A stretch of DNA of 64,000 nucleotides, taken from Nitrospirales bacterium. GTDB lineage: Bacteria > Nitrospirota > Nitrospiria > Nitrospirales > UBA8639. The stretch is taken from NCBI GenBank assembly GCA_965223185.1, contig OZ244988.1:2500613-2564612 (forward strand), read 5' to 3'. The notes beneath the pieces are model-generated. The model saw only the letters and a list, made by a program, of their open reading frames with translations, was not told the DNA's origin and made no database searches. This document shows positions 23,586 through 50,181 of this stretch, piece after piece (positions within the stretch are counted from its first letter, which is position 1; the number at the start of each line of letters is the position of its first letter). A program made the translations under genes and the position numbers.

Positions 23586-24037
23586 CCTATTCCTCCATCT
23601 CCCTTTTCGGATTCTTCAATGACGATCTGGAAACCGTTCATGAAAAAAGGTGATTTCTCGTGATCATTAGTGGCGGTTAGGCGAAGTTGATACCCGATAT
23701 AAAAATACGTGATTGGAAAAGAAATTACTAAAAGGATCAAGGAGTTAATTCCACATCGAAAAAAACCGAAAGACTGGACTGGAGTCCTACCAACCGTGAG
23801 GAAACGAGCGACGTGAGGAGGAGAGGAAGGGTATCTGTGAATGAGGGACCTTTATGCATTGAGGAAATGAAAGATAGAAATGAGTTGAGCAGGGGTCGAT
23901 GAGCCAAGCGCGGTGGGATTCAGGGCTTGGAAAATGTCGGGCTGTGAACGAGGTCGACCACTGGGATGGTGGGTTGTCTGCATGCAATGACAGAATGTGG
24001 ATAGACTCGATCACGTTTGGGTGTATCCAGTACACAT

Positions 24038-25636: not shown

Positions 25637-26490
25637 GATACCGATTTTGGGGGTCTTTAGGTTTTTTAGTCATCAGTTTGGTGCTGATGACAGGAGAGAA
25701 GGGTATCGGAAAAAGTAAGGGTATCCAGTCTTCCGATCTTAATGCCGTTCGTGGGGTTGTGAAACCAACTGAAGAAGCTGTGATCTCGAGCGAATTACAA
25801 GCTCGCGTCAAACGAATGCCTTTTCGTGATGGACAATGGTTCAAAAAGGGAGATCTGTTGGTTGAATTCGATTGTTCGAAATATTGGGCCGAACTGGCCG
25901 CCGCGAAAGCAGAGCTTGAGGCTCGAGAGAAAACCGCAGAAAACAATCAGGCACTCGCCAAACTCAATGGCATTGGGCAATTGGAGGTGGATGTATCCGA
26001 AGCCGAAGTCAAGCAAGCCAAGGCTGCCGTGAGAAGTGCAAGTTTGGCGGTACGGCACTGTAAAATTACGGCACCATTTTCAGGCCGGGTGGTGAAAGGA
26101 CTTGTCAATCCTCATGAAAGTGTGAATCCGTACGATGAGGTCATGAGTGTGTTGAATGATAAGACCTTCGAAATCGAATTGATTCTCCCTTCCTCGTCAT
26201 TGCGATGGGTGACCAAAAAAAGTGTCTTCAAGTTTTATATCGATGAAACCCAGGAGTTGTATCTCGCCGAAGTGGTGGAGATTGGGGCTCGGGTGGATCC
26301 GGTGAGTCAGACGATCCGGGTGTTTGGACAATTCAAGGAGCAACCCAAGCAGGTCCTGGCCGGTATGAGTGGGAGCGCAAGATTTTTGGATCGAACGGTG
26401 AAGGAAGAAACTTCAAAGCCGAAATTTAAACCGAGCACGTCTCCGCAACCGTCAACAGCGGCATCAACGATTCACAGTTCTCTAAAATAG
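25633..26490 (+). CDS. HlyD/membrane-fusion-protein-like periplasmic adaptor (short, 285 aa)
   Basis: N-terminal TM/signal, a barrel-sandwich (biotinyl-lipoyl-like) sequence (VKPTEEAVISSELQARVKRMPFRDGQWFKKGDLLVEFD ... ITAPFSGRVV) and a short coiled-coil insert. Confidence 0.75.
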   Translation: MRYRFWGSLGFLVISLVLMTGEKGIGKSKGIQSSDLNAVRGVVKPTEEAVISSELQARVKRMPFRDGQWFKKGDLLVEFDCSKYWAELAAAKAELEAREKTAENNQALAKLNGIGQLEVDVSEAEVKQAKAAVRSASLAVRHCKITAPFSGRVVKGLVNPHESVNPYDEVMSVLNDKTFEIELILPSSSLRWVTKKSVFKFYIDETQELYLAEVVEIGARVDPVSQTIRVFGQFKEQPKQVLAGMSGSARFLDRTVKEETSKPKFKPSTSPQPSTAASTIHSSLK

Positions 26491-33156: not shown

Positions 33157-33313
33157 ATTAATCCAATCTTGTTTAACGGCCTAGGGGAATCTTTTTGGGG
33201 GTGGGAGGAAAAACTGAGTTCTTGATCCTCGCGAGCATTAAATCGAAAGCAAAAGAATAAGAAGTTCCTTCTTCTGCTGATTTTCCCCTGCGGTTTCCGG
33301 GGAAATTGTATCC

Positions 33314-33475: not shown

Positions 33476-33766
33476 TGAAGGGGGGATGCCTGCTACCGGC
33501 ACGCGGGGATAATGGAGGGGGGAGGGGGCTTTGCGCTATTTTTATCCTCACCAACATCAAAACAGCAATCACAAGACGACAAAACCTTTATCAACTGTCA
33601 CCATTCACAAAATAACGCGGAAGAAGCTTCCATATTTAGCGTCAAGAGATTGGTGAATTGGACGACAAAAGAATAGGGGATTTTCCCCCATAGAGGGAGT
33701 GGTGTTTGCCGTGATATTCGCATCGACCCCTATCGGACTAGAGAAGATGCATCAAGGAATCGTGTG

Positions 33767-36700
33767 ATGAATAAGATGATGTGCAAGCCTGCCACGCTGG
33801 ATGCCGTGAAAGAGAAGAAAGCCGATACGGCGAAGACTAAATCCGGCACCCCAAAAAAGAATAAAGCCAAAGCCCAACAAGAAGAAGCCGAACCCGTGAG
33901 CGGCATCGGGCTTCTGGTCGCACTCGAGCCGCGCATCATGTTCGATGGCGCGGCGTTGGCCACCGGAGCCGAAGTCATCCAAGACACCACGACCCAAGAC
34001 CAAACGGAAATCCCCGGCATCGACGGGGAGACCGCCACCGATACCACTTCGACTGACTCCTCTGACAGCGAGGCCCTCTGGTCATCTGGCCTCTCGCTGT
34101 CTGCCCCATCCGATCGCAAAGAAATTGTGTTCATTGACACTGCAGTTGATGATTATCAGACACTCATGGAAGGCATCGACCCCAATGCCGAAGTCATCCT
34201 TTTAGATCCTACTCGGGACGGCATCGAACAAATTGCAGAGATTCTTGGAGACCGCTCGGATATTGATGCCGTCCATATTATTTCACATGGAGATCCCGGG
34301 GAACTGCAACTTGGAACGGGCACGCTTAGCTTCGCGTCGATGCAAGAGGAGTATGCCGACGAACTGGCCACTATCAGCCAAGCCCTTTCCCAAGAGGCTG
34401 ACCTGCTGGTCTATGGCTGTAATTTCGGAGAAGGCGGCTCTGGTACGGAAGCGGCTAATTTATTGGCGGCACTCACAGGGGCAGATGTTGCGGCGAGTAG
34501 TGATCTGACCGGAGCAGAGGCGCTGGGCGGCGACTGGGACCTCGAAATGCAAACCGGCACGATTGAGACAGACGTGATCGTGGATGAGCAAGCCCAAGAA
34601 GTTTTTACCGGCGTGTTAGATATCACGACGGGCTTAGTAGCGGACTGGACATTTGATGCGGATGCTACTGACTCAAGCGGCAATAGTTATGACGGGACCT
34701 TAACGGGTGATGCGTCAATTGATACCGCAGATGCCACAGACATCGTCGGGGAGGGAAAACTTTCATTGGATGGCACTGGAGATTATGTCGATCTGGATGC
34801 GCATATCTCTGCGTTTAGTGGACTAACCGAAGGCACCATTGCAGGATGGGTCAAAGTCACCGATTCGGGAGAAAATATTCTCTTCGGCATTTCAGATTCC
34901 GGCGACTCCCTTAGTCTTGCAAAGTTTGGCATTGAGGCCGGGGGACAAGTGAAATGGCTGATTGGTGAAGGTGGAGGAATTGATGTCCTGGCGTATAGTA
35001 ACCAAACGGTCAATGATGGGGCCTGGCATCATATCGCCATTACCGTCAATTCCAGTGGTACGACCATGTATATTGATGGACAAGTGGCCAGCGTGACGTA
35101 CTCGGGTGGAAGTGCGTCTTCGACGAATTTCTTTTCCACAATTAATGACATTGATGCTGCGGACATTGGACGCTCTTTGCGTGGAGGGGTGTCTGAGGCT
35201 GAATTCAATGGCTTGGCTGATAACGTGAAGATCTATGATCGTGCTCTGAGTTTAGGAGATATTCAAGAACTCGTGGCTCAGGCCCCAACATCATACGGTG
35301 AAATTGGGCATTGGACCTTTGATGCAGATGCCACGGATTCGAGCGGGAACAACTACGATGGCACACTCACCAACGGAGCTATTATTGATACGACCGATAC
35401 GACGGATCAAGTTGGTGGCGCCAAACTGTCGTTGGATGGGACGAATGATTACGTGGATCTCTCGAGCCACGTGTCCAATTTTAGCAGTCTCAATGAAGGG
35501 ACGATTTCGGGATGGATCAACACCACCGGGACCTATGAAACAATCTTTTCAATCTCAAGTACGGCTGATGCGAATAGCTATGCCACCTTATTCGTAGGGG
35601 CTTCGGGATACCTCACGTTTGAAGTGTATGAAAATGGCTCTCCAATTTTGGCCGTCTACAATGGCAATGGGGACACGATTAATGATGGTACGTGGCACCA
35701 CGTGTCGATCTCAATGAGTGCGACAGGAAATAGTCTCTACATAGATGGACAACTGATTGCACCAGGCGATCTCATCTACGATACAGGGTCAGCATCCACC
35801 AGTGCGTTCTTTAATGATGTCTCTGGATTGGACGCTATGGCGGTCGGTCGCAATGAAAACTCGAGTGGAGGACGCTGGTATACCAGCGGATTGATTGATG
35901 ATGTTCGCGTACATAATCGAGCATTAAGTACGGCAGTTATCGCTCAGTTAGCGCAAGAAGCGCCTGTTGCCAATGACGATACGGCCACCACCACGGCGGG
36001 CACGCCGGTGACGATAGACGTGAAGTCGAATGACACCGACCTGGACAGTGAAACCATCACCGTCCTGGATGTCGGTAATCCTACCAACGGTATCGTGGTC
36101 AACAACGAAGACGGCACGGTCACCTACACTGCGAATGGAAACTACACCGGGTCCGATAGTTTTAGCTACCTCACAGCCGATCTGGACGATACCATCAGCT
36201 ATTGGCGGCTGGATGGGGATGCCACTGATGCGGTGGGCAGTAATGACGGAACCATCACCGGAACGACCACCGTCGAAGGCGCGTATGGAGACGCCTTGAG
36301 CTTCGATGAAGTCGATGATAAGGTGGTCATCTCCGACTTCTCCTACGGGAATGAATTCAGCCTGTCGTTTAAAATCAAGATCGATGACAACAGTGGGTCC
36401 TCATTCCAGTACATCTACAGTCATGGGGATATCAACTCTGCCAATAGTTTGAATGTTTTTCTCGGGGAAACTTCATCGGGTGCATCAAATCTCCTCCGCA
36501 CCGTTATTCGAGACACCAACGATACCCTAGAAAATTCTGCCTTGGACTTCGATGTCAGCAGCATCATCGGGGATGGTCAATGGCATACCTACACGCTAAC
36601 AGTCGCGAATGGGGTAGGATCGAAAGTGTATTTGGATGGGGTCCTGAAGAATACCGATACGCGTGGCGGGGAGGCCTTTGATCCTGGAACGGATCTCTAT

Positions 36701-39700
36701 CTAGGTGCGCGGCAAGATTTAGACGCCAATCGGTATTTTGGCGGTTCTCTCGACAGCGTCCAACTCTTCAACCGGGCCCTCAGTGAGTCGGAAGTCGAAG
36801 ATACACACACCGGCGGCAATTCCTTAGGGACGGTCAATGTCACCGTCACCACGGATAGCGCGCCGGTGAATTCCGTACCAGGCAGCCAAACCACCAACGA
36901 AGACACGACGCTCACGTTTAATACTGCGAACAGCAATCTCATCTCTATCACCGATGATGCCGGCGATACCTTAGTGGTCACCTTGTCGGTCAATAACGGG
37001 ACTGCCACACTCTCCGGCACGAGCGGGTTGACGTTTACTACCGGAGACGGGACCGCAGATGCCACCATGACCTTCTCGGGTACGGTGGAAGATATCAATA
37101 CCGCGTTGGACGGTCTTCAATACGATCCCACTACGGACTACTCAGGCAGCGATACGCTCACTCTCACAAGTTACGATCAAATTCTCTACTCCTTAGACTT
37201 TGATGCCAATCTGCAAGGGTACTATCAATTTGACAGCGGCGATCCCGGCAACGACAGCAGTCCCGGCGGGACCTTGGACGGCACGCTTAATGGAGATGCG
37301 GCTGTCATTACAGATGGAACGCGAGGAGATGTGCTGTCTCTCGATGGGACCGGTGACTATGTGGAGATTGCAGGAACTTTATCAAATCCCACCAACGTCA
37401 CGTTGTCAGCCTGGGTGAAATACTCCTCCGCGCCCGCCAACGGGGGTGAAGTGATCTCCATCGGCAACGATATCGCGTTACGAGTCGATGATTGGACTCA
37501 GGGGGTGACAGGATTTTTCTATGATGGAACTACTCATCAATTTATCGGCAGTAGTGTCAGTTTGGCCGATAATAATTGGCATCACATCGCCTTCACCTTT
37601 GATGATGGGGCGAATACTCAAAGTCTCTACATTGATGGGACTTTAGTTGCTTCAGGCAACTTTACCTCTTCCATCACCTATACCGGCTGGTTTCCCCAGA
37701 CGACGATCGGAACCCACGCGGATTTGGGCGACTCGAGTTTTGACTTCAGTGGGTTGATCGATGATGCCCGAATTTACGATCGGGCCTTGTCGGCCAGCGA
37801 AATCCAGGGGATGGCGTCGGCCCCGGTGACGGCTAGCGACACCGATACGGTGGCTCTGACTGTGACTTCGGTGAATGATGATCCGGTCATCTCCAGCGAT
37901 GGCGGAGGAGCCACGGCGAATATCAATGTGGCTGAAAACACGACGGCAGTTACTACCGTTACTTCCACGGATGTGGATGGCGGCACGGCGATCTATTCCA
38001 TTAGCGGTGGGCTTGATGCGGCGAAATTCAGCATTAATAGTTCAACCGGGGAACTGGTCTTCCAGGCCGCGCCGGACTATGAAACCCCGACCGATTCCAA
38101 TGGCGACAATGTCTATGAAGTTATCGTTCTGGTCTCGGATGGCAACGGCGGGACGGATACGCAGACCATCAATGTGACGGTTACGGATGTAGCCAATACG
38201 CTGACGGTCACGACGACAGCCGATAACAACGACAGCGGCATCGTCGCTGGCGATGGCAACTATGACATCGAATGGTTGAATGCCAATTTGGGGGCAGACT
38301 CCTCCATCTCCTTGCGTGAAGCGATTATCGCGGCCAATAACACCACCGGCACCGATACGATTTCCTTCAACATCTCCGATCCATTGGTGAGCGGGGCGCA
38401 CACCATCGACGTCCTTTCGGCCTTGCCCGATATTACCGACTCGATCATCATCGACGGGACGACAGAACCGGATTTTGCCGGCACACCCATCATTGAATTA
38501 GATGGATCGAGTGCCGGGGCCGGGGTTGATGGGCTGCGTCTGATTTCCGGCAGTGACGGCAGTACCATTCGTGGCTTAGTCATCAATCAATTTAGTTCGC
38601 AGGGGATTGAAATTAATAATTCCGATGGGAATACCATTGCCGGCAATTATATTGGAACGGATGTGACGGGAACGGTGGATTTGGGAAATGGCAGTGCGGG
38701 GATTTATCTTTTCAGCGCGCAGAACAATACCATTGGTGGCACAACCGCCGCCGATCGAAACCTGATTTCCGGCAATCAAGGGAGTGGAATTTTGCGGCAA
38801 GGCTCCAATGGGGGCAACCTTATTCAAGGCAATTACATCGGAACAGATGTCACGGGAACGCTCGATCTTGGCAATACGCAAAATGGGATTGCCTTCGCGG
38901 GATCTGGAGCGGATACCATTGGAGGGTCGGTGGCAGGAGCTGGCAATGTGATTTCGGGCAACAATATGTCTGGTATCTCCATCGGCGTAGGGGCGGATGG
39001 TGTCACGATTCAAGGCAATATTATTGGGTTAAATGCCGCTGGGACTGGGATAATTGCCAATACAGGAGATGGGATCGCGCTAAGCAGTGACAATAATCAA
39101 GTTGGGGGCACGACGGCTGCGGCCCGCAATATTATTTCCGGTAATACCAGCGATGGGATTGCCTTAGACGGAGATAATAATATTGTTCAAGGCAATTATA
39201 TTGGAACAGACATCACGGGCACGGTGGATCTCGGAAATACGGATGATGGAATTGATATTTCCGGTGCCACGAATACGATTGGTGGAACGACTGCTGGGGC
39301 GCGAAACATTATTTCTGGGAATGACCAGGATGGGATTGAAATCGGTAATGCGACGGCAACCGGCAATATTGTGCAAGGGAACTATATTGGAACCGATGTC
39401 ACAGGGACCCTGGATTTGGGCAATAGTGATGATGGCATCCAAATTTTTAACGGCGCCACGTTTAATACCATTGGTGGTACGACGGCGAGTGCCAGAAATG
39501 TCATTTCTGGAAATGATGGTCGTGGCATAGATATTTTTGACGCTGCTACGACGAATAACTCGATCCTCGGCAATTATATTGGGTTAAATGCTGCAGGGAC
39601 GGCAGATTTAGGGAATACTTTAGAAGGGATCCAAATTGATACCAATGCGGCGGGAAATACCATTGGGGGAGCCGTGGCAGGAGCCGGGAATGTGATTTCT

Positions 39701-42700
39701 GGCAATGATGCCGGTGGGATCATCATTGGAACTGGTGCTGATAATACCACGATCCAAGGTAATACGATTGGCCTGAATGCGGCGGGAACCGGTATCGTCG
39801 CCAATACAGGTCATGGCATCACGATTAATGCGAACAATACGCAAATTGGAGGCACCACGGCGCTCGCGCGAAATGTCATTTCAGGTAACTCCCAAGATGG
39901 TATTTATGTGTCGAGTGCCTCTGGGACGACGATTGAAGGCAATTATATTGGGACAGATGTGACCGGAACCGTCGATTTGGGAAACAGTCGGTATGGGATC
40001 TATTTGTTGAGTGCCACGAACACGATCATTGGGGGCTCAGTCGTTGGGGCGCGGAATGTGATTGCGGGAAATACCAATTCTGGAATTCGTGATCAAAGCT
40101 CTTCAGGCACCACGATACAAGGGAATTACATAGGCGTGGACTCAACTGGGACGACGGCGATGGGTAATTCCCAGGGCATTCAAGTCTGGAGTTCCACCAA
40201 TGGCACGATTGGGGGTTCAGGAGCCAATGAAGGTAATGTCATTGGTGGAAATACCAATCAAGGAATTCTGTTTTACGGATCTTCAGGGTATACGGCGCAG
40301 GGGAACTATATTGGGACGGATGCGACAGGAACCGTAGATTTGGGGAATGGTGGTCATGGAATCGTGTTCTCTAGTACGGCCTCAAATTTTGTGATTGGTG
40401 GAACAAGTGCCGGAGAAGGTAATGTTATTGCCTTTAATGCTCTTGATGGGATTAGTGCCCCGAGTACAGCAAGCGATATTTCAATACTGGGCAATCAAAT
40501 CTATTCTAATACCGGCCTCGGGATTGACTTGGTTGGGGGCACAGAAGATGGAGCAGGTGTCACTGCTAATGATGCTGGGGATGCTGATACGGGTGCGAAT
40601 GGGCTTCAGAACTATCCGGTCCTAACTGCAGTTAATACGACAGGAAGTTCAGTCAGTATTACCGGGTCGTTGAATAGCACGGCTAGCACGACCTTCCGTA
40701 TCGAGTTTTATGCGAGTGCTGCAGCCGATGGGTCGGGATACGGGGAAGCCGAACGGTATTTAGGCTATGCCACGGTGACAACGGATGGGAGCGGCAATTG
40801 CACGATGAATCTCACGGAATCCTGGGCGGTGGCCTCCGGGGAATATGTCACGGCGACTGCCACCGTGATAACCGATGCTGGACAAGTCGGTGTCGATGAT
40901 GCGCTGGCCTATGGTAATACCTCCGAGTTCTCGCAAAATGTGGTGGCCAATACCGGACCGGTGAATACCGTGCCGGGGGCTCAAGTGGTCAATGAAGATA
41001 CAGTGTTGGCCATCAGTGGCATTTCTGTCGCCGATTCCAATAGCAATCTTTCAACAGTCCAATTATCGGTCACCAATGGCGCGTTGACGGTCACATTGAG
41101 TGGTGGAGCCACCATCAGTGCTGGGACCAATGGAACAAGTACCCTCACCATTTCAGGAACACAAGCAGATATTAATGCCACCTTAGCCAGTCTGACCTAC
41201 CAAGGGGATCTCAATTTCAATGGCAGTGACACGCTCACGATTCTGAGTACGGATGCAGGTGCTTTAACGGATACGGACACCGTTGACATCACCGTGAACG
41301 CAGTGAATGATGCGCCGGTGAACACGGTGCCGGGGGCGCAAGTGGTTCTCGAGGATACGGCATTGAACATCACCGGTATTTCCGTGAATGACGTGGATGG
41401 CAACCTGTCCACGGTCCAACTCTCTGTCACGAACGGGACGCTGAATGTAACGTTGAGTGGTGCGGCCACGATTAGTGCAGGGGCTAACGGGACGAACACC
41501 TTGACCTTGAGTGGCTCCCAAGCCGACATCAACGCGACCTTGGCGAGCCTGACTTACCAGGGTACCCTCAATTATGTGGGAAGCGATACCCTGACCGTGC
41601 TTTCGACTGACACGAATTCCGCGACCGATTCTGACACCGTTTCCATTACAGTCAATCAAGACAATGATGCGCCAGTTGTTACGGCTAGTGGTGGTGCCAC
41701 CAGTTATACGGAACAAGCGACCGCCACGGTAATTGATAACGCTCTCACGCTCGTTGACCCCGATGGCTTTGATGGGACAGACCCCTCCGATCAGTATGTG
41801 GGTGTGGTTCAAATCACAGGAAATTATGAGGCAGCAGATATCCTAGGTTTTACCAACACCTCAAAGATTCAGGGAAATCTATCCGGTGATACCTTGACTC
41901 TCACGGTTATTGGAGGGCAGACGGCGACGGTCGCGGAGTTTGAGGCGGCTTTGCGCACAGTGACCTTCTATAGTGGTAGTGATACACCCAGCGAGTTGGA
42001 TCGAACCATCACTTTTAGTTTTGATGACGGCGTGGATAGCTCCAACTCCTCTACGAAGACGGTGCAAGTGACGGCTGTCAATGATCAGGCCATCGCGGAT
42101 CTTAATGGGGCGGATGGGGGAGGCAATAATTTTTCCACGACCTTTATGGAAGGATCCGGTGCCCTCAATGTTACTGATACGGATGCCACCCTGAGCGATG
42201 TCGATCACTCCACGTACGATTCCCTCGGGATCAATTTGTCCGGCTTTGTTGATGGGACCAATGAAAAGATCACCATCGCTGGCTATACCTTCACCTTTGG
42301 CACTGCAGAAACTGTTGTCCGAACGGTCGGGGCCACGGATTTTGAGATCGACTTTGATGGGAGTGGCTTTTCTATACAAAAAAATATCAGTGGCGAAATG
42401 CCGGAGGCAGACCTGCAAACGCTTCTTCGTGGCATCACGTACGAAAATATTTCAGAAAACCCGACTATTGGGAACCGTACCATCGATTTTATTCCCCAAG
42501 ATGGTGATGCCTTGGTCGGACAGACCTCTACCAGCACCATCACGGTAGCCGCTACCAATGATGCTCCTGTCATTACAAATCTAGGTGGCGATGCACTCGC
42601 CTACACGGAAGGGGACGGCGCGCAAGTCGAGCAAAGTGCGGATGCCGCCGTCAGTGATGTCGATTCCACGAATTTTGACACGGGGACCCTAACAGTATCC

Positions 42701-45700
42701 TTCCAAGCGGGAAGTGATTCCGCCGAAGATATCTTGAGTCTTCGTAACCAGGGCACGGGCACTGGCCAGATTGGGGTTTCCGGTTCGACCGTCACGTATC
42801 AAGGCGTCACGATTGGGACCTTTACTGGTGGCACAGGCGGCACCGATTTGGTCATTACGTTCAATGCTAGTGCTGATGCGACAGCCGTTAGCGCCCTAAT
42901 CCAAAATATCACCTATGAGAATACCGACACGGACAACCCAACGACAGGCGCCCGAATGGTGCGCTATGTATTGACCGATGGTGATGGCGGCACCAGTGCC
43001 AACTACGACACCACCATCACGGTGAGCAACGTGAACGACGCGCCGGTGAACACGGTGCCGGGGGCGCAAGCCGCGACCGAGGATACGCCCTTGGCCATCA
43101 GCGGCGTGAGTGTCAGTGACGTCGATGACAACCTGAGCACGGTGCAACTGGCGGTGACCAACGGGACGGTGAATGTGACCTTGAGTGGCGGGGCCACCAT
43201 CAGTGCGGGGGCCAACGGCAGCAATACCCTGACGCTCTCCGGCAGCCAAGCCGACATCAACGCCACGTTAGCCAGCTTGAGCTACCAAGGGACCTTGAAC
43301 TATACGGGCAGCGACACGCTGACCATCACGAGCACGGATGCCAATAGTGCCACGGATGTGGATACGGTGGCCATCACGGTGAGCAACGTGAACGACGCGC
43401 CGGTGAACACGGTGCCGGGGGCGCAAGCCGCGACCGAGGATACGCCCTTGGCCATCAGCGGCGTGAGTGTCAGTGACGTCGATGACAACCTGAGCACGGT
43501 GCAACTGGCGGTGACCAACGGGACGGTGAATGTGACCTTGAGTGGCGGGGCCACCATCAGTGCGGGGGCCAACGGCAGCAATACCCTGACGCTCTCCGGC
43601 AGCCAAGCCGACATCAACGCCACGTTAGCCAGCTTGAGCTACCAAGGGACCTTGAACTATACGGGCAGCGACACGCTGACCATCACGAGCACGGATGCCA
43701 ATAGTGCCACGGATGTGGATACGGTGGCCATCACGGTGAGCAACGTGAACGACGCGCCGGTGAACACGGTGCCGGGGGCGCAAGCCGCGACCGAGGATAC
43801 GCCCTTGGCCATCAGCGGCGTGAGTGTCAGTGACGTCGATGACAACCTGAGCACGGTGCAACTGGCGGTGACCAACGGGACGGTGAATGTGACCTTGAGT
43901 GGCGGGGCCACCATCAGTGCGGGGGCCAACGGCAGCAATACCCTGACGCTCTCCGGCAGCCAAGCCGACATCAACGCCACGTTAGCCAGCTTGAGCTACC
44001 AAGGGACCTTGAACTATACGGGCAGCGACACGCTGACCATCACGAGCACGGATGCCAATAGTGCCACGGATGTGGATACGGTGGCCATCACGGTGAGCAA
44101 CGTGAACGACGCGCCGGTGAACACGGTGCCGGGGGCGCAAGCCGCGACCGAGGATACGCCCTTGGCCATCAGCGGCGTGAGTGTCAGTGACGTCGATGAC
44201 AACCTGAGCACGGTGCAACTGGCGGTGACCAACGGGACGGTGAATGTGACCTTGAGTGGCGGGGCCACCATCAGTGCGGGGGCCAACGGCAGCAATACCC
44301 TGACGCTCTCCGGCAGCCAAGCCGACATCAACGCCACGTTAGCCAGCTTGAGCTACCAAGGGACCTTGAACTATACGGGCAGCGACACGCTGACCATCAC
44401 GAGCACGGATGCCAATAGTGCCACGGATGTGGATACGGTGGCCATCACGGTGAGCAACGTGAACGACGCGCCGGTGAACACGGTGCCGGGGGCGCAAGCC
44501 GCGACCGAGGATACGCCCTTGGCCATCAGCGGCGTGAGTGTCAGTGACGTCGATGACAACCTGAGCACGGTGCAACTGGCGGTGACCAACGGGACGGTGA
44601 ATGTGACCTTGAGTGGCGGGGCCACCATCAGTGCGGGGGCCAACGGCAGCAATACCCTGACGCTCTCCGGCAGCCAAGCCGACATCAACGCCACGTTAGC
44701 CAGCTTGAGCTACCAAGGGACCTTGAACTATACGGGCAGCGACACGCTGACCATCACGAGCACGGATGCCAATAGTGCCACGGATGTGGATACGGTGGCC
44801 ATCACGGTGAGCAACGTGAACGACGCGCCGGTGAACACGGTGCCGGGGGCGCAAGCCGCGACCGAGGATACGCCCTTGGCCATCAGCGGCGTGAGTGTCA
44901 GTGACGTCGATGACAACCTGAGCACGGTGCAACTGGCGGTGACCAACGGGACGGTGAATGTGACCTTGAGTGGCGGGGCCACCATCAGTGCGGGGGCCAA
45001 CGGCAGCAATACCCTGACGCTCTCCGGCAGCCAAGCCGACATCAACGCCACGTTAGCCAGCTTGAGCTACCAAGGGACCTTGAACTATACGGGCAGCGAC
45101 ACGCTGACCATCACGAGCACGGATGCCAATAGTGCCACGGATGTGGATACGGTGGCCATCACGGTGAGCAACGTGAACGACGCGCCGGTGAACACGGTGC
45201 CGGGGGCGCAAGCCGCGACCGAGGATACGCCCTTGGCCATCAGCGGCGTGAGTGTCAGTGACGTCGATGACAACCTGAGCACGGTGCAACTGGCGGTGAC
45301 CAACGGGACGGTGAATGTGACCTTGAGTGGCGGGGCCACCATCAGTGCGGGGGCCAACGGCAGCAATACCCTGACGCTCTCCGGCAGCCAAGCCGACATC
45401 AACGCCACGTTAGCCAGCTTGAGCTACCAAGGGACCTTGAACTATACGGGCAGCGACACGCTGACCATCACGAGCACGGATGCCAATAGTGCCACGGATG
45501 TGGATACGGTGGCCATCACGGTGAGCAACGTGAACGACGCGCCGGTGAACACGGTGCCGGGGGCGCAAGCCGCGACCGAGGATACGCCCTTGGCCATCAG
45601 CGGCGTGAGTGTCAGTGACGTCGATGACAACCTGAGCACGGTGCAACTGGCGGTGACCAACGGGACGGTGAATGTGACCTTGAGTGGCGGGGCCACCATC

Positions 45701-48664
45701 AGTGCGGGGGCCAACGGCAGCAATACCCTGACGCTCTCCGGCAGCCAAGCCGACATCAACGCCACGTTAGCCAGCTTGAGCTACCAAGGGACCTTGAACT
45801 ATACGGGCAGCGACACGCTGACCATCACGAGCACGGATGCCAATAGTGCCACGGATGTGGATACGGTGGCCATCACGGTGAGCAACGTGAACGACGCGCC
45901 GGTGAACACGGTGCCGGGGGCGCAAGCCGCGACCGAGGATACGCCCTTGGCCATCAGCGGCGTGAGTGTCAGTGACGTCGATGACAACCTGAGCACGGTG
46001 CAACTGGCGGTGACCAACGGGACGGTGAATGTGACCTTGAGTGGCGGGGCCACCATCAGTGCGGGGGCCAACGGCAGCAATACCCTGACGCTCTCCGGCA
46101 GCCAAGCCGACATCAACGCCACGTTAGCCAGCTTGAGCTACCAAGGGACCTTGAACTATACGGGCAGCGACACGCTGACCATCACGAGCACGGATGCCAA
46201 TAGTGCCACGGATGTGGATACGGTGGCCATCACGGTGAGCAACGTGAACGACGCGCCGGTGAACACGGTGCCGGGGGCGCAAGCCGCGACCGAGGATACG
46301 CCCTTGGCCATCAGCGGCGTGAGTGTCAGTGACGTCGATGACAACCTGAGCACGGTGCAACTGGCGGTGACCAACGGGACGGTGAATGTGACCTTGAGTG
46401 GCGGGGCCACCATCAGTGCGGGGGCCAACGGCAGCAATACCCTGACGCTCTCCGGCAGCCAAGCCGACATCAACGCCACGTTAGCCAGCTTGAGCTACCA
46501 AGGGACCTTGAACTATACGGGCAGCGACACGCTGACCATCACGAGCACGGATGCCAATAGTGCCACGGATGTGGATACGGTGGCCATCACGGTGAGCAAC
46601 GTGAACGACGCGCCGGTGAACACGGTGCCGGGGGCGCAAGCCGCGACCGAGGATACGCCCTTGGCCATCAGCGGCGTGAGTGTCAGTGACGTCGATGACA
46701 ACCTGAGCACGGTGCAACTGGCGGTGACCAACGGGACGGTGAATGTGACCTTGAGTGGCGGGGCCACCATCAGTGCGGGGGCCAACGGCAGCAATACCCT
46801 GACGCTCTCCGGCAGCCAAGCCGACATCAACGCCACGTTAGCCAGCTTGAGCTACCAAGGGACCTTGAACTATACGGGCAGCGACACGCTGACCATCACG
46901 AGCACGGATGCCAATAGTGCCACGGATGTGGATACGGTGGCCATCACGGTGAGCAACGTGAACGACGCGCCGGTGAACACGGTGCCGGGGGCGCAAGCCG
47001 CGACCGAGGATACGCCCTTGGCCATCAGCGGCGTGAGTGTCAGTGACGTCGATGACAACCTGAGCACGGTGCAACTGGCGGTGACCAACGGGACGGTGAA
47101 TGTGACCTTGAGTGGCGGGGCCACCATCAGTGCGGGGGCCAACGGCAGCAATACCCTGACGCTCTCCGGCAGCCAAGCCGACATCAACGCCACGTTAGCC
47201 AGCTTGAGCTACCAAGGGACCTTGAACTATACGGGCAGCGACACGCTGACCATCACGAGCACGGATGCCAATAGTGCCACGGATGTGGATACGGTGGCCA
47301 TCACGGTGAGCAACGTGAACGACGCGCCGGTGGCTGCCAACGATTCATATACGACTTCAGAAGATATTCCGATTACTACCACGCTTGGTACAGGCGTATT
47401 GGCTAATGATTTCGATTTGGATGGAGATACCCTAACCGTTACTACTACGCCGATTGTGGGCGTGTCGAACGGGACGTTAGTTTTGAATGCGGATGGCACC
47501 TTCACTTACACCCCCAATAGCGGGTGGAGTGGGGTGGATACCTTCACCTATCAGGTGACGGATGGGAATGGAGGTAATGCGCAAGCGACAGTGACACTTA
47601 CGGTCGTTAGTGTGAATGACGCGCCGGTGATCACGAGTCATGGGGGCGGTGGGAATGCGGCCCTTTCGATGGCGGAAAATTTGATGGGGGTGACCACCAT
47701 GGCTGCGACGGATGCTGATGGTGATCCGTTGACCTATAGCATTGTTGGTGGGGTCGATGCCGCACGATTTATGATTGATGCGAACAGTGGGGTTCTGAGT
47801 TTCGTCGGGGCACCTGACTTTGAAAATCCTACAGACCTGGGTGGCGATAATGTGTATGACGTACAGATCCAAGTGAGTGATGGACAAGGGGGAACCGACA
47901 TTCAAGCCCTGTCAATCACAGTGACCGACGTGTTGGAAGGGGGAGGTGCGCCACTTCCTACGCCTGATCCTACTCCTGAACCAGAACCTGAGCCAACGCC
48001 TGAGCCTACCCCCGAACCTGAGCCCGATCCTGTCTTGTCGGGTGCCCCCTCTCCCGTTTCGAATCCTATGGAGACCGGTATGGGGTTATTAGATGAAAGT
48101 GACATGGGCAGCCGTGGTATTGAGGATGAGCCTCATCAAATAGGGCACCAGGAGCCGGTCAATGTTTTAGATTTACCCCCATTGCTGCGCCCAGCTTCCT
48201 GGGCGACGACATCTGATCAAATTCGTGCGTATTATCCTGATCCTTTGGATATGAACAACACGGGGCTCTCTCCGGAAGTTCTTCAGCAGTTAACCCAATT
48301 TTCCGATGAATTAGGGCAGACTATGGAGGAACAGGTCGATGATCGTTCCTGGTTCATCAATACGGTCAAGGGCGCTGGACTTTCTTTATCAGCCGGCTTT
48401 GTGGCCTGGATGGTGCGAGGAGGGGCTTTAGTAGCTGGGTTGATGGCCTCGCTTCCCGCATGGAGACATTTTGACCCGGTGCCTATTTTGAGTATGGATA
48501 AAAAAGGTAAAGAAGACTGGACGCGGCGGGTGACAGAAGCCACCAAGTTGGAAGCGCATGAACATCAAGGCTTAGAAAAGATTTTAGGAGGATCTCAATC
48601 GAAGGGTCCGGAGTCTCTCTCTCAAAATCCTGTTGACCCACCCGCATCCCCCCCTCTCCCATGA
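33767..48664 (+). CDS. Giant repetitive surface protein 2 (about 4965 aa): Lys-rich N-terminus, LEPRIMFDGA motif, DUF4347-like domain, four LamG/ConA-like modules, cadherin-like modules, a long right-handed beta-helix, at least 15 NDAPVN-type 119-aa repeats (12 identical), Pro/Thr/Glu linker, C-terminal double-TM anchor
   Basis: A single uninterrupted 14.9-kb frame. I prefer the ATG at 33767 (AAGGAA 8 nt upstream) over the adjacent GTG at 33764. Motifs: LVALEPRIMFDGAALATGAEV; SDRKEIVFIDTAVDDYQTL...IHIISHGDPGELQLG; four W.FD.DATDSSGN.YDGTL ... DD/N.(K/R)IY.RALS modules (LamG_3-like); SLREAIIAANN followed by many N.I.GNYIGTDVTGT.DLGN coils; NDAPVNTVPGAQ repeats; PTPDPTPEPEPEPTPEPTPEPEPDP; GLSLSAGFVAWMVRGGALVAGLMASLPAWRHFDPVPIL. 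No GGxGxD RTX repeats were seen. Confidence 0.93.
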   Translation: MNKMMCKPATLDAVKEKKADTAKTKSGTPKKNKAKAQQEEAEPVSGIGLLVALEPRIMFDGAALATGAEVIQDTTTQDQTEIPGIDGETATDTTSTDSSDSEALWSSGLSLSAPSDRKEIVFIDTAVDDYQTLMEGIDPNAEVILLDPTRDGIEQIAEILGDRSDIDAVHIISHGDPGELQLGTGTLSFASMQEEYADELATISQALSQEADLLVYGCNFGEGGSGTEAANLLAALTGADVAASSDLTGAEALGGDWDLEMQTGTIETDVIVDEQAQEVFTGVLDITTGLVADWTFDADATDSSGNSYDGTLTGDASIDTADATDIVGEGKLSLDGTGDYVDLDAHISAFSGLTEGTIAGWVKVTDSGENILFGISDSGDSLSLAKFGIEAGGQVKWLIGEGGGIDVLAYSNQTVNDGAWHHIAITVNSSGTTMYIDGQVASVTYSGGSASSTNFFSTINDIDAADIGRSLRGGVSEAEFNGLADNVKIYDRALSLGDIQELVAQAPTSYGEIGHWTFDADATDSSGNNYDGTLTNGAIIDTTDTTDQVGGAKLSLDGTNDYVDLSSHVSNFSSLNEGTISGWINTTGTYETIFSISSTADANSYATLFVGASGYLTFEVYENGSPILAVYNGNGDTINDGTWHHVSISMSATGNSLYIDGQLIAPGDLIYDTGSASTSAFFNDVSGLDAMAVGRNENSSGGRWYTSGLIDDVRVHNRALSTAVIAQLAQEAPVANDDTATTTAGTPVTIDVKSNDTDLDSETITVLDVGNPTNGIVVNNEDGTVTYTANGNYTGSDSFSYLTADLDDTISYWRLDGDATDAVGSNDGTITGTTTVEGAYGDALSFDEVDDKVVISDFSYGNEFSLSFKIKIDDNSGSSFQYIYSHGDINSANSLNVFLGETSSGASNLLRTVIRDTNDTLENSALDFDVSSIIGDGQWHTYTLTVANGVGSKVYLDGVLKNTDTRGGEAFDPGTDLYLGARQDLDANRYFGGSLDSVQLFNRALSESEVEDTHTGGNSLGTVNVTVTTDSAPVNSVPGSQTTNEDTTLTFNTANSNLISITDDAGDTLVVTLSVNNGTATLSGTSGLTFTTGDGTADATMTFSGTVEDINTALDGLQYDPTTDYSGSDTLTLTSYDQILYSLDFDANLQGYYQFDSGDPGNDSSPGGTLDGTLNGDAAVITDGTRGDVLSLDGTGDYVEIAGTLSNPTNVTLSAWVKYSSAPANGGEVISIGNDIALRVDDWTQGVTGFFYDGTTHQFIGSSVSLADNNWHHIAFTFDDGANTQSLYIDGTLVASGNFTSSITYTGWFPQTTIGTHADLGDSSFDFSGLIDDARIYDRALSASEIQGMASAPVTASDTDTVALTVTSVNDDPVISSDGGGATANINVAENTTAVTTVTSTDVDGGTAIYSISGGLDAAKFSINSSTGELVFQAAPDYETPTDSNGDNVYEVIVLVSDGNGGTDTQTINVTVTDVANTLTVTTTADNNDSGIVAGDGNYDIEWLNANLGADSSISLREAIIAANNTTGTDTISFNISDPLVSGAHTIDVLSALPDITDSIIIDGTTEPDFAGTPIIELDGSSAGAGVDGLRLISGSDGSTIRGLVINQFSSQGIEINNSDGNTIAGNYIGTDVTGTVDLGNGSAGIYLFSAQNNTIGGTTAADRNLISGNQGSGILRQGSNGGNLIQGNYIGTDVTGTLDLGNTQNGIAFAGSGADTIGGSVAGAGNVISGNNMSGISIGVGADGVTIQGNIIGLNAAGTGIIANTGDGIALSSDNNQVGGTTAAARNIISGNTSDGIALDGDNNIVQGNYIGTDITGTVDLGNTDDGIDISGATNTIGGTTAGARNIISGNDQDGIEIGNATATGNIVQGNYIGTDVTGTLDLGNSDDGIQIFNGATFNTIGGTTASARNVISGNDGRGIDIFDAATTNNSILGNYIGLNAAGTADLGNTLEGIQIDTNAAGNTIGGAVAGAGNVISGNDAGGIIIGTGADNTTIQGNTIGLNAAGTGIVANTGHGITINANNTQIGGTTALARNVISGNSQDGIYVSSASGTTIEGNYIGTDVTGTVDLGNSRYGIYLLSATNTIIGGSVVGARNVIAGNTNSGIRDQSSSGTTIQGNYIGVDSTGTTAMGNSQGIQVWSSTNGTIGGSGANEGNVIGGNTNQGILFYGSSGYTAQGNYIGTDATGTVDLGNGGHGIVFSSTASNFVIGGTSAGEGNVIAFNALDGISAPSTASDISILGNQIYSNTGLGIDLVGGTEDGAGVTANDAGDADTGANGLQNYPVLTAVNTTGSSVSITGSLNSTASTTFRIEFYASAAADGSGYGEAERYLGYATVTTDGSGNCTMNLTESWAVASGEYVTATATVITDAGQVGVDDALAYGNTSEFSQNVVANTGPVNTVPGAQVVNEDTVLAISGISVADSNSNLSTVQLSVTNGALTVTLSGGATISAGTNGTSTLTISGTQADINATLASLTYQGDLNFNGSDTLTILSTDAGALTDTDTVDITVNAVNDAPVNTVPGAQVVLEDTALNITGISVNDVDGNLSTVQLSVTNGTLNVTLSGAATISAGANGTNTLTLSGSQADINATLASLTYQGTLNYVGSDTLTVLSTDTNSATDSDTVSITVNQDNDAPVVTASGGATSYTEQATATVIDNALTLVDPDGFDGTDPSDQYVGVVQITGNYEAADILGFTNTSKIQGNLSGDTLTLTVIGGQTATVAEFEAALRTVTFYSGSDTPSELDRTITFSFDDGVDSSNSSTKTVQVTAVNDQAIADLNGADGGGNNFSTTFMEGSGALNVTDTDATLSDVDHSTYDSLGINLSGFVDGTNEKITIAGYTFTFGTAETVVRTVGATDFEIDFDGSGFSIQKNISGEMPEADLQTLLRGITYENISENPTIGNRTIDFIPQDGDALVGQTSTSTITVAATNDAPVITNLGGDALAYTEGDGAQVEQSADAAVSDVDSTNFDTGTLTVSFQAGSDSAEDILSLRNQGTGTGQIGVSGSTVTYQGVTIGTFTGGTGGTDLVITFNASADATAVSALIQNITYENTDTDNPTTGARMVRYVLTDGDGGTSANYDTTITVSNVNDAPVNTVPGAQAATEDTPLAISGVSVSDVDDNLSTVQLAVTNGTVNVTLSGGATISAGANGSNTLTLSGSQADINATLASLSYQGTLNYTGSDTLTITSTDANSATDVDTVAITVSNVNDAPVNTVPGAQAATEDTPLAISGVSVSDVDDNLSTVQLAVTNGTVNVTLSGGATISAGANGSNTLTLSGSQADINATLASLSYQGTLNYTGSDTLTITSTDANSATDVDTVAITVSNVNDAPVNTVPGAQAATEDTPLAISGVSVSDVDDNLSTVQLAVTNGTVNVTLSGGATISAGANGSNTLTLSGSQADINATLASLSYQGTLNYTGSDTLTITSTDANSATDVDTVAITVSNVNDAPVNTVPGAQAATEDTPLAISGVSVSDVDDNLSTVQLAVTNGTVNVTLSGGATISAGANGSNTLTLSGSQADINATLASLSYQGTLNYTGSDTLTITSTDANSATDVDTVAITVSNVNDAPVNTVPGAQAATEDTPLAISGVSVSDVDDNLSTVQLAVTNGTVNVTLSGGATISAGANGSNTLTLSGSQADINATLASLSYQGTLNYTGSDTLTITSTDANSATDVDTVAITVSNVNDAPVNTVPGAQAATEDTPLAISGVSVSDVDDNLSTVQLAVTNGTVNVTLSGGATISAGANGSNTLTLSGSQADINATLASLSYQGTLNYTGSDTLTITSTDANSATDVDTVAITVSNVNDAPVNTVPGAQAATEDTPLAISGVSVSDVDDNLSTVQLAVTNGTVNVTLSGGATISAGANGSNTLTLSGSQADINATLASLSYQGTLNYTGSDTLTITSTDANSATDVDTVAITVSNVNDAPVNTVPGAQAATEDTPLAISGVSVSDVDDNLSTVQLAVTNGTVNVTLSGGATISAGANGSNTLTLSGSQADINATLASLSYQGTLNYTGSDTLTITSTDANSATDVDTVAITVSNVNDAPVNTVPGAQAATEDTPLAISGVSVSDVDDNLSTVQLAVTNGTVNVTLSGGATISAGANGSNTLTLSGSQADINATLASLSYQGTLNYTGSDTLTITSTDANSATDVDTVAITVSNVNDAPVNTVPGAQAATEDTPLAISGVSVSDVDDNLSTVQLAVTNGTVNVTLSGGATISAGANGSNTLTLSGSQADINATLASLSYQGTLNYTGSDTLTITSTDANSATDVDTVAITVSNVNDAPVNTVPGAQAATEDTPLAISGVSVSDVDDNLSTVQLAVTNGTVNVTLSGGATISAGANGSNTLTLSGSQADINATLASLSYQGTLNYTGSDTLTITSTDANSATDVDTVAITVSNVNDAPVNTVPGAQAATEDTPLAISGVSVSDVDDNLSTVQLAVTNGTVNVTLSGGATISAGANGSNTLTLSGSQADINATLASLSYQGTLNYTGSDTLTITSTDANSATDVDTVAITVSNVNDAPVAANDSYTTSEDIPITTTLGTGVLANDFDLDGDTLTVTTTPIVGVSNGTLVLNADGTFTYTPNSGWSGVDTFTYQVTDGNGGNAQATVTLTVVSVNDAPVITSHGGGGNAALSMAENLMGVTTMAATDADGDPLTYSIVGGVDAARFMIDANSGVLSFVGAPDFENPTDLGGDNVYDVQIQVSDGQGGTDIQALSITVTDVLEGGGAPLPTPDPTPEPEPEPTPEPTPEPEPDPVLSGAPSPVSNPMETGMGLLDESDMGSRGIEDEPHQIGHQEPVNVLDLPPLLRPASWATTSDQIRAYYPDPLDMNNTGLSPEVLQQLTQFSDELGQTMEEQVDDRSWFINTVKGAGLSLSAGFVAWMVRGGALVAGLMASLPAWRHFDPVPILSMDKKGKEDWTRRVTEATKLEAHEHQGLEKILGGSQSKGPESLSQNPVDPPASPPLP
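38590..40500 (+). repeat. Degenerate in-frame coil repeats of the parallel beta-helix region (about 22-aa coils in roughly 65-aa super-repeats)
   Basis: The protein shows recurring I.GNYIGTDVTGT.DLGN...GI.......N.IGG......RN.ISGN...GI blocks. The DNA copies are clearly diverged. Confidence 0.7.
40960..41670 (+). repeat. Two diverged copies of the NDAPVN-type 119-aa repeat, older paralogues of the amplified unit
   Basis: GPVNTVPGAQVVNEDTVLAISGISVADSNSNLSTVQLSVTNGALTVTLSGG... and NDAPVNTVPGAQVVLEDTALNITGISVNDVDGNLSTVQLSVTNGTLNVTLSGA... align along their whole length with the amplified unit but differ at many nucleotide positions. Confidence 0.85.
43021..47304 (+). repeat. 12 head-to-tail, apparently identical copies of a 357-bp (119-codon) in-frame tandem repeat
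   Basis: Unit starts fall every 357 nt: 43021, 43378, 43735, 44092, 44449, 44806, 45163, 45520, 45877, 46234, 46591 and 46948. The sense translation and two antisense ORF series (112 aa and 107 aa) are letter-identical in every copy. Partial identity extends to about 43012 and 47331. Confidence 0.97.
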
Positions 48665-50181
48665 ACCGTTCCACTCCCTTGCTTTGGATCAGCTTTGGAC
48701 TGGTCTCTCTCACTCTGAGTATTTTGCTCATGAGTGATCTGGCCGTGGATTTAGTCCCTAATCAAGCTAAAGAAATTTTTGAATACCGGCAAAAATACAG
48801 TGAAGCGTTGGCTGTTCAATATTCCCTACTGGCGGAAAATGGGGATAGCCGAGCTATTCAGGAGGCCTTTGACCTTTTAATTGAACGGAATGATGACATC
48901 CTATCTGCTTCTGTGATTTTAGCCAATGGTGAGACCTTGGCTGTTTCTGGTCGACACCATCAACTCTGGAAGCAACCTTCAGGAGACTCGTCCACCCCCG
49001 ATCATATTCAGGTCCCAATTTATAATAGCCGCGAGCGGTGGGGAACGGTTCAATTACGATTTCGATCTCTTGAGAATAAAGGGTGGCTCGATTGGTTGAG
49101 GGATCCATGGATTCAGTTTTTGGGTCTGGTCGTGGGGTCTGGGTTTATGGGTTATTTTTTGTATATGAAACGCACATTACATCAACTGGATCCCAGCTCA
49201 GTAGTTCCTTTACGTGTGAAAGCGGCATTTGATGTGCTGACAGAAAGTGTGGTGCTGCTCGATAATGGTGAACGGATTGTTCTTGCTAATCGAGCTTTTG
49301 GAGGTGTGGTCGGAAAGAATCCTAATGAGCTCGTTGGTACACGACTTGATGAATATCACTGGAATTCGGTTTCTCCCGCTCCACTCATGACCATCTTTCC
49401 GTGGAAGACGGCGCGCAAGGAAAAATGCGTGGAATTGGATTGTCCTATGAGCCTCACCGACGTTTCGGGAAAAGTGTTAAAGTTTCGGGTGAATTGTACG
49501 CCAATTCTTAATGATCGCGAACTTGTCCAAGGTGTGTTGGTTTCCTTTGATGATGTGACCAGGTTGGAAGAAACGATTTTGGAACTTGAATCATCCAAAA
49601 TGGAAATGGAAAGTCTCGCAATGCGGGATCCGCTTACGGGCATTTTCAATCGACGTGCTTTATTTGAGGCGTTTGAGGATCTTCATCAAGTGAGTATTGC
49701 AGAGTTGGGGGATTATGGCTGCATCATGTGTGATATTGATCATTTTAAATCGTTTAACGATCGTTTTGGTCATGCGGTTGGGGATCAGGTGATTCAAGTC
49801 GTTGGCAAAATTCTTTCCACCACGATTCGGCCAACCGATATCATTGGTCGATACGGAGGTGAAGAGTTTTGCATTTTATTACCTGGTCAAGGTCCGGAGG
49901 AGACGGCCATTGCCGCTGAACGTCTACGTCTTGCTATTTCGGCTCGTGCCAGCCAAGCCATACGCACGACAGGAGATAACCGTATTACCATGAGCTTTGG
50001 AACGTCCTGTTTATCTTTGGGCGCCTCTGACCCTTTGGAATTGGTCGATCAGGCGGATAAGGCTTTGTATGTTGCAAAACAAGCTGGCCGGAACCAGGTG
50101 GGACAATGGACTTCCGAAGGTCCCCAAGCCGGTCTTCCTATTACATTAGAAGTAGAGAGTTTTGCAGGGTCAGTCGACTAG
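48661..50181 (+). CDS. Membrane sensor diguanylate cyclase: TM, periplasmic domain, TM, PAS and GGDEF
   Basis: Active-site RYGGEEF with an RPTD (RxxD I-site) five residues upstream, plus DIDHFKSFND. The first ~310 aa are paralogous to the N-terminus of the hybrid kinase at 17356-19869. The ATG overlaps the giant gene stop (ATGA at 48661-48664). Confidence 0.9.
   Translation: MNRSTPLLWISFGLVSLTLSILLMSDLAVDLVPNQAKEIFEYRQKYSEALAVQYSLLAENGDSRAIQEAFDLLIERNDDILSASVILANGETLAVSGRHHQLWKQPSGDSSTPDHIQVPIYNSRERWGTVQLRFRSLENKGWLDWLRDPWIQFLGLVVGSGFMGYFLYMKRTLHQLDPSSVVPLRVKAAFDVLTESVVLLDNGERIVLANRAFGGVVGKNPNELVGTRLDEYHWNSVSPAPLMTIFPWKTARKEKCVELDCPMSLTDVSGKVLKFRVNCTPILNDRELVQGVLVSFDDVTRLEETILELESSKMEMESLAMRDPLTGIFNRRALFEAFEDLHQVSIAELGDYGCIMCDIDHFKSFNDRFGHAVGDQVIQVVGKILSTTIRPTDIIGRYGGEEFCILLPGQGPEETAIAAERLRLAISARASQAIRTTGDNRITMSFGTSCLSLGASDPLELVDQADKALYVAKQAGRNQVGQWTSEGPQAGLPITLEVESFAGSVD

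Follow-up and report, generated by a model that had tools for sequence, protein, structure and literature searches.

The 64,000-nucleotide (nt) stretch of Nitrospirales DNA analysed here (contig OZ244988.1, positions 2,500,613 to 2,564,612 of the forward strand; called the window below) carries two genes for giant repeat proteins, Giant 1 and Giant 2, which end in a shared C-terminal block of about 125–150 amino acids (aa). This block, referred to as the module, is the subject of the present analysis, and the two genes with the parts of their modules are laid out as follows.

33764..48664, + strand: Giant 2, 4966 aa; basic N-terminal region with a LEPR-XLL-like motif, DUF4347, Laminin_G_3, cadherin-like and Big_9 repeats, C-terminal module
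47951..48031, + strand: Giant 2, Pro-rich spacer PLPTPDPTPEPEPEPTPEPTPEPEPDP, its centre 142 aa upstream of the central Arg
48269..48370, + strand: Giant 2, acidic amphipathic pre-membrane helix SPEVLQQLTQFSDELGQTMEEQVDDRSWFINTVK
48371..48463, + strand: Giant 2, hydrophobic core GAGLSLSAGFVAWMV - RGG - ALVAGLMASLPAW; W, R, G and P-x-W are invariant in the family alignments
48464..48490, + strand: Giant 2, interfacial motif RHFDPVPIL (family consensus [RK]-x-[FLV]-D-P-[LVI]-P-[VI]-L)
48491..48661, + strand: Giant 2, tail with basic cluster KKGK..RR, conserved helix ending in HQGLEKIL, and disordered Pro/Ser end
19866..23585, - strand: Giant 1, 1239 aa; LEPR-XLL, DUF4347, beta-helix, choice-of-anchor Q, cadherin-like and Big_9 parts, C-terminal module
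20520..20561, - strand: Giant 1, Pro-rich spacer PPSPSPSPSPSPPP
20034..20243, - strand: Giant 1, pre-helix, core and interfacial motif, TYLASSIAATTGLSIGYVIWLL - RSG - VLLTALLSSVPAW - QLVNPLLVL (hydrophobic core 20061-20174, QLVNPLLVL 20034-20060)
19869..20033, - strand: Giant 1, charged tail KKIRKSER...DDSLESMFEE...

The C-terminal blocks of the two giants are homologous far beyond chance: when the last 207 aa of Giant 2 were compared with the last 244 aa of Giant 1 by BLASTP, 166 residues were aligned at 25% identity with E=1e-11. This bears out the preliminary description of the locus, in which the last ~200 aa of both proteins had been aligned by eye. Both peptide strings quoted there are found in the translations of the giants, a Pro-rich linker does precede the block in each of them (47951-48031 and 20520-20561), and the pattern proposed at that time, GLS..G...W..R.G.L...L..S.PAW...(D/N)P...L, fits the invariant and near-invariant columns of the family alignment (S, G, W, R, G, L, P-A-W, D, P and L). 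A six-frame scan of the window with the family profile detected exactly two copies of the module, those of Giant 1 and Giant 2. Moreover, a Kyte-Doolittle scan located the sole strongly hydrophobic stretch of either giant within the shared block, and revealed no N-terminal hydrophobic or Sec-type signal in either protein.

The module is found far outside the window. A word-indexed seed search with the last 152 aa of Giant 2 returned 27 matches, mostly gene fragments from Nitrospirota metagenomes, and the profile built from these matches together with Giant 1 (profile A1) was run on 1.84 billion cluster representatives. At E<=1e-3 it matched 5126 clusters; a threshold of E<=1e-10 left 3123 of them, and one of E<=1e-30 left 31. 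Every match lay at the very C-terminal end of its host protein, and the hosts reach 3711 aa in length. Exactly one core motif is present in 138 of the 150 best representatives, and its end lies 3–68 aa (median 47) from the C-terminus. A profile search of this kind had been suggested as a check in the preliminary description, and the 5126 clusters show that the module is not confined to two paralogues. As judged from record titles and source names, the carriers include Nitrospirota, Ca. Thiodiazotropha and Pseudomonadales of the Gammaproteobacteria, Myxococcota, and Phycisphaeraceae of the Planctomycetota, a few of these assignments resting on bins with possible contamination. In addition, genomes of the GTDB set were scanned with the pattern PAWR[HY]FDP, which is biased to Nitrospirota, and this phylum makes up the great majority of the loci obtained in that way. 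No Pfam or NCBIfam model matches either window module, nor any of 36 diverse members of the family even at E<=1; no PDB sequence matches the module profile, and none of 72,556 plasmids was matched when two divergent modules were used as tblastn queries. In the literature we found no description of the module or of the M50-adaptor system described below. The giant repeat proteins that end in this module make up a very large family that is not curated, with the module as its C-terminal signature domain.

From the N-terminal to the C-terminal side, the module is built as follows. A Pro-rich window was found in 55 of the 78 testable members; a median distance of 160 aa (interquartile range 149–167) separates it from the central Arg further downstream, with poorly conserved sequence in between. 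The acidic amphipathic helix has the consensus F..LD.M...L.EA and is followed by a hydrophobic segment of ~35 residues in all, which is broken by the invariant W-x-x-R-(G/S/A)-G. Among the 124 representatives scored, the first uncharged run has a median length of 18 residues, is rich in Gly, Ser, Ala and Thr and ends in S-x-G-[FY]-[VI]-x-W-x-L; the second has a median length of 15 and ends in P-x-W. The central Arg is followed by S-G, G-G or A-G and is replaced by Gln in only two of these 124; one locus (L079) has R-A-E at the turn. Behind P-x-W come the interfacial D-P..P motif, a Lys/Arg cluster and a helix that turns acidic and closes with a conserved hydrophobic motif, examples of which are EFKGLKHLL, QFRGLDRVL, DDSVESMF, DDSLESMF and HQGLEKIL. 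The 15 aa before the hydrophobic segment have a net charge of -1.3, and the 15 aa behind the D-P..P motif one of +1.8.

An AlphaFold2 model of the module, computed from 74 sequences, has a mean predicted local distance difference test (pLDDT) score of 73. In this model the acidic helix runs through both hydrophobic runs as one continuous helix of 60 residues (H38-97), and is followed by a short helix at the P-x-W motif and by the tail helix (H114-147), where pLDDT averages 84–93 in the 10-residue blocks that cover model residues 111-140. Foldseek with the model gave no meaningful match (best E=6.5). The layout had previously been read as a double-transmembrane (double-TM) anchor with a charged cytoplasmic tail. 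The shared conserved block and the charge of the tail stand, but 'double-TM' and 'cytoplasmic' are interpretation and not observation, given uncharged runs of 18 and 15 residues and the single helix of the model; nor is the tail only basic, since its basic cluster gives way to an acidic helix with the conserved hydrophobic end. The charge asymmetry fits the positive-inside rule with a cytoplasmic tail, and together with the AlphaFold2 model it suggests, as one topology, a single long span with the N-terminal side out and the C-terminus in (N-out/C-in). The arms of 18 and 15 residues and the tolerated R-A-E suggest, as the other, a tight hairpin around the polar R-(G/S/A)-G centre. We favour, with a probability of roughly 45%, the reading that the module is an inner-membrane anchor and docking domain and not a short cleaved sorting tag. 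The ~35-residue hydrophobic segment around W-x-x-R-(G/S/A)-G would then be seated in the cytoplasmic membrane, and the basic cluster and the conserved tail helix would remain in the cytoplasm.

Between Giant 1 and Giant 2 sits a four-gene operon:

24017..25636, + strand: TolC-family outer-membrane factor, with a lipobox (LSGC) after an N-terminal hydrophobic stretch
25633..26490, + strand: small HlyD/RND-type periplasmic adaptor
26543..28006, + strand: GAF-adaptor, a HlyD periplasmic part linked through one TM segment to a cytoplasmic GAF domain
28000..30138, + strand: M50-HlyD fusion, a membrane domain of the M50 (site-2-protease) family joined to a HlyD adaptor, with the motifs HELGH (residue 204) and NLNPLLRFDG (residue 298)

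The lipobox indicates that the TolC-family protein is probably a lipoprotein of the NodT/OprM type. The two M50 motifs are intact in the fusion protein, and HExxH and NxxPxxxxDG are invariant in 38 M50-HlyD homologues. In its AlphaFold2 model (mean pLDDT 79) a soluble domain at the N-terminus is followed by a helical membrane core and then by a C-terminal part, which in Foldseek matches the adaptors MacA, EmrA and MexA with E values down to 6e-13, including the TolC-docking alpha-hairpin. The N-terminal 157 aa (28000-28470) are well conserved and have no Pfam match.

The preliminary description had named the neighbouring M50 protease as an obvious candidate processing enzyme, and the gene order makes the M50-HlyD fusion a credible partner of the module within Nitrospirota. 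From the 73 loci retrieved with PAWR[HY]FDP, 16 are informative in that the start of the giant gene is visible with at least 2.5 kb upstream of it, and the operon adjoins the giant in 13 of these. Among the exceptions is L011, where the giant comes second in a tandem pair; the L011 contig overlaps the operon-bearing contig of L071. The operon was also found at L074, where it is divergently transcribed, and at L113. Conversely, both look-ups that started from M50-HlyD homologues (47–48% identity) show an OEP gene, two adaptor genes and the M50-adaptor gene, then a DUF4347 giant. Among the best 120 matches listed, the M50-HlyD homologues are only close Nitrospirota relatives. If the module is an anchor, the ~150-residue stalk with the Pro-rich spacer could cross the envelope through the TolC-like channel and the three periplasmic adaptors, with the adhesin-like repeats displayed outside and the protein still tied to the cell. 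By order of magnitude, 27 polyproline-like residues, ~80 disordered residues and a 34-residue helix would cover ~300 Å, the length of a tripartite assembly. The M50 domain, placed where a pump normally sits, would be the candidate for cutting the anchor, whether to release the protein or to mature it.

The same operon invites the explanation that the module is a C-terminal secretion signal resembling that of type 1 systems, read by the inner-membrane base of the TolC/adaptor complex, by which the giants would be exported C-terminus first without being anchored. One TolC-family and three HlyD-family genes stand beside the giants, the adaptor part of the fusion is MacA/EmrA-like, neither giant has a Sec signal, and the amphipathic C-terminal helix with its acidic, hydrophobic-tipped end loosely recalls type 1 signals. 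However, a conserved stretch of ~35 hydrophobic residues is not a feature of such signals, RTX repeats are present in neither giant (no HemolysinCabind match to the whole proteins with Pfam), and no NCBIfam model of a type 1 C-terminal target matches. Nor is an ABC transporter, or an RND or MFS pump, found among the window's open reading frames (ORFs) of at least 150 aa; an ABC transporter for the TolC/HlyD set could be encoded elsewhere in the genome. Furthermore, an element that stays in the membrane would better account for the charge asymmetry, which follows the positive-inside rule, and for the fixed spacer distance, and we consider this secretion-signal explanation quite unlikely.

Directly behind each giant, on the same strand, lies a gene for a membrane-bound sensor with a PAS domain, and one of these is followed by a further gene of cyclic di-GMP (c-di-GMP) turnover:

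48661..50181, + strand: sensor of the order TM - periplasmic part (~120 aa) - TM - PAS, with GGDEF output; its start overlaps the stop of Giant 2 (ATGA)
17356..19869, - strand: hybrid histidine kinase with the same N-terminal sensor; its start overlaps the stop of Giant 1 (ATGA)
15320..17179, - strand: response regulator of c-di-GMP turnover (domains GGDEF and EAL); the gene lies downstream of that for the hybrid kinase

The N-terminal sensors of the PAS-GGDEF protein and the hybrid kinase share 35% identity over 289 aa (E=2e-51). Such a sensor gene follows the module directly in 46 of 69 loci of the Nitrospirota-biased set, in all six context look-ups, Thiodiazotropha included, and in 18 of 32 loci of a divergent subfamily, which was fetched from metagenomes by its core P[LM]W[KR]Q[FL]DPL. 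The outputs attached to the shared N-terminal sensor are GGDEF, GGDEF-EAL, histidine kinase and hybrid kinase, and the giant-sensor pairs of the Giant 1 type and of the Giant 2 type are each kept as a unit. In the framework of an anchored giant, the co-translated TM-PAS kinase or diguanylate cyclase would be its candidate partner, by which the adhesin's state is read or set. The analysis defines a C-terminal domain that Pfam, NCBIfam and PDB lack, and ties this domain to an unusual operon of four genes, none of them for a pump, as well as to membrane sensors that form a dedicated family.

These linkages could also mean that the role of the module is mainly in signalling, the module being the membrane partner by which the TM-PAS kinase or cyclase turns adhesin production, engagement or tension into phosphorelay or c-di-GMP output, with export and anchoring as secondary matters. 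The sensor counts given above extend over Nitrospirota, Thiodiazotropha and unclassified lineages, stop and start overlap in both pairs of the window, and varied outputs on one N-terminal sensor, like the conserved pairing, are in keeping with this idea. Yet about one-third of the loci, among them a whole marine lineage, have no adjacent sensor and still keep the invariant residues and the tail motif; no acidic residue that might pair with the invariant Arg is conserved in the sensor TM helices, and adjacency alone may mean co-regulation only. In our estimate a primarily signalling role is improbable. As for the sensors themselves, their N-terminal TM-periplasmic-TM part (~180 aa; 48661-49200 in the window) is well conserved and has no Pfam match. 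We also tried to match module subtypes, defined by the tail motif, with the sensor output, and the pattern was too unclean to be stated as a rule. Genes of c-di-GMP and related signalling are clustered around both giants (13647-17179, 48661-50181 and 51078-51944) and encode EAL-HDOD, response regulator-GGDEF-EAL, PAS-GGDEF and HDOD proteins.

In the preliminary description the layout was likened to PEP-CTERM, GlyGly-CTERM and LPXTG, which leads to the model that the module is a cleaved sorting signal comparable to those of exosortase, rhombosortase and sortase, removed by the M50 enzyme from every molecule. Like these signals, the module forms the very C-terminal end of surface proteins and has a basic cluster besides its hydrophobic segment, and several paralogous substrates per genome occur near one candidate membrane protease; the window and loci from the same assemblies have several giants per operon, as one sorting enzyme has several substrates. 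The M50-HlyD gene is adjacent in Nitrospirota with its active site intact, and the hydrophobic segment contains Gly, Ser and Pro, helix breakers that are typical of substrates of intramembrane proteases. The likeness fails in other respects. The conserved motif comes after and not before the hydrophobic segment, the reverse of the known order, and the ~130 aa of the module with its ~50-aa structured, conserved helical tail go far beyond the needs of a signal of ~25–35 aa, the module being four to five times longer than those signals. No CTERM model was detected in either window module or in the 36 members, and among the best representatives the tail extends a median of 47 aa past the motif; neither an LPXTG nor a Gly-Gly motif stands ahead of the hydrophobic segment, with no model match either. 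The remark that the sequence matches no known sorting signal holds for the models of Pfam and NCBIfam. An exosortase (EpsH-family) gene was not seen among the scanned ORFs of the 64-kb window, and the candidate enzyme here is an M50 metalloprotease fused to a periplasmic adaptor instead of an exosortase, rhomboid or sortase. Moreover, the gene directly downstream, overlapping the giant in the window, encodes a signalling protein and not a processing enzyme, and an M50 gene lies within 10 kb in none of the four informative loci of the divergent subfamily. Routine removal of the module as a sorting tag is, on this evidence, unlikely.

The anchor reading, which we prefer, has to be weighed against several observations that speak against it. 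The first concern the membrane segment itself: the continuous 60-residue helix of the AlphaFold2 model passes straight through both hydrophobic runs, and a hairpin that crosses the membrane twice would leave the tail facing the same compartment as the giant part, at odds with a simple N-out/C-in anchor. Known site-2 proteases cleave N-in/C-out helices, the opposite orientation. Furthermore, no energy source or Sec signal is visible that could carry 5000 residues across the inner membrane. The remaining points are genomic. In the four informative loci of the divergent subfamily, HlyD and TolC genes are missing within 10 kb just as M50 genes are. In the marine lineage (L086, L089, L091, L099, L102 and L103), each assembly has several module-bearing DUF4347 giants, and these are surrounded by housekeeping genes, while neither the operon nor a sensor gene is present within 10 kb; the neighbours encode ALAD, OmpA-like, topoisomerase I, DprA, IlvD, DctM and patatin/cNMP (cyclic nucleotide) proteins. 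The Thiodiazotropha giant has an unfused 415-aa adaptor just upstream, and its contig ends ~0.9 kb further upstream. The marine modules nevertheless retain every invariant residue and the acidic tail motif. The machinery of that lineage may be encoded elsewhere in the genome, which is conceivable because one operon already serves two giants in the window. A single phylum supplies most of the synteny, which common descent explains in part. We regard as unlikely the fuller proposal that a pump-less assembly of TolC and three adaptors on a site-2-type protease base threads and tethers the giants by their C-terminal membrane segment and frees or matures them by intramembrane cleavage, under the control of the GAF-adaptor and the sensor.

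Two known systems deserve comparison. As in LapA/LapG/LapD, a giant repeat adhesin without a Sec signal is accompanied by genes of the TolC and HlyD families and of c-di-GMP enzymes, and the logic would be that of a tether that a protease can cut. In contrast to LapA, the giants have no RTX repeats and the window has no ABC transporter, and the candidate tether is C-terminal and embedded in the membrane instead of an N-terminal plug, with an intramembrane M50 enzyme and not a periplasmic one as the candidate protease. A LapG-like protein was seen neither among the window ORFs of at least 150 aa (Pfam) nor among the operon and its neighbours by NCBIfam, and LapD appeared only as a weak secondary match of generic GGDEF/EAL proteins, far below the cutoff. 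The giant system is not a member of the Lap system, because no Lap component was seen among the scanned ORFs and no RTX feature in the giants. The second comparison is with the M50 substrates RseA (cut by RseP) and SREBP, which share with the module a membrane segment rich in helix-destabilising residues; here too the adjacent gene has HExxH and NxxPxxxxDG intact, and SREBP also forms a two-helix hairpin. RseA and SREBP differ in being regulators that are released to the cytoplasm after a first cut outside the membrane, whereas here the putative substrate would be a giant extracytoplasmic protein and the protease is fused to a TolC-docking adaptor.

If the protease-release model holds, the giants would represent a new system of display and secretion, a functional analogue of LapA/LapG/LapD made from unrelated parts, and a new class of M50 substrates. 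Thousands of predicted giant surface proteins carry the module, in nitrite-oxidising and comammox Nitrospira, in sulfur-oxidising symbionts and in marine lineages, and a model of it would help annotators to recognise the family and to join fragmented giant genes in metagenomes. It also offers a handle on the surface export of giants without a Sec signal or RTX repeats, on the role of an M50 protease fused to a TolC adaptor, and on the coupling of adhesin state to c-di-GMP and phosphorelay signalling in biofilm-forming nitrifiers.

At their N-termini both giants carry DUF4347 (PF14252), with E=5e-53 in Giant 1 (residues 150-312) and E=6e-58 in Giant 2 (residues 121-285, at 34124-34618), preceded by LEPR-XLL (NCBIfam NF012209, cutoff 17 bits), which scores 17.1 bits in Giant 1 and, below the cutoff, 14.2 bits in Giant 2. 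With this sub-cutoff score for Giant 2, both proteins belong by their N-termini with the LEPR-XLL/DUF4347 giants, a family for which no function is recorded in the literature; the NF012209 and DUF4347 models cover the N-terminus only, and the module is covered by no model. Of the representatives, 36 have a length of 900 aa or more; DUF4347 stands at the start of 22 of these, 17 of which show a recognisable LE[PQS]R motif, and the other 14 of the 36 begin inside repeats and look like truncated gene calls or fragments. In the metagenome loci, DUF4347 and the module are in one ORF wherever the start is visible. The LEPR-XLL/DUF4347 N-terminus and the downstream TM-PAS gene, neither of them mentioned in the preliminary description, are more constant companions of the module than the M50 gene is. 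An alignment of 53 DUF4347 domains shows conservation of at least 90% for A.H....G, AD.L.YGC and LTGAD...S.D.TG; the conserved His and Cys suggest that the domain may be cysteine-protease-like and possibly self-processing, with a putative resemblance to clan CD/CHAT.

Some further features of the locus were noted. Positions 43014-47332, inside Giant 2, form a tandem array in which a unit of 357 nt (119 aa) is repeated 12.1 times at 100% identity. Such an array points either to an expansion of very recent date or to an error of assembly, which makes the true length of this protein uncertain. Small ORFs, five copies of a 41-nt element (32088-32244 and 33349-33429) and a 177-nt direct repeat with 82% identity (32125-32301 and 33310-33486) are found in the 3.6 kb that separate the M50-HlyD operon from Giant 2. 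In a divergent, GC-rich locus (L109), two genes of the PDZ plus peptidase-M6-like type (627-4414) precede the module-bearing giant, and a 2103-aa ORF without a Pfam match follows the sensor (12878-19186). Finally, a gene for a BREX BrxC/BrxD-like ATPase is located at 61309-63885 of the window, and such a gene again adjoins the homologous operon in an unrelated contig (L118, 1-3619).

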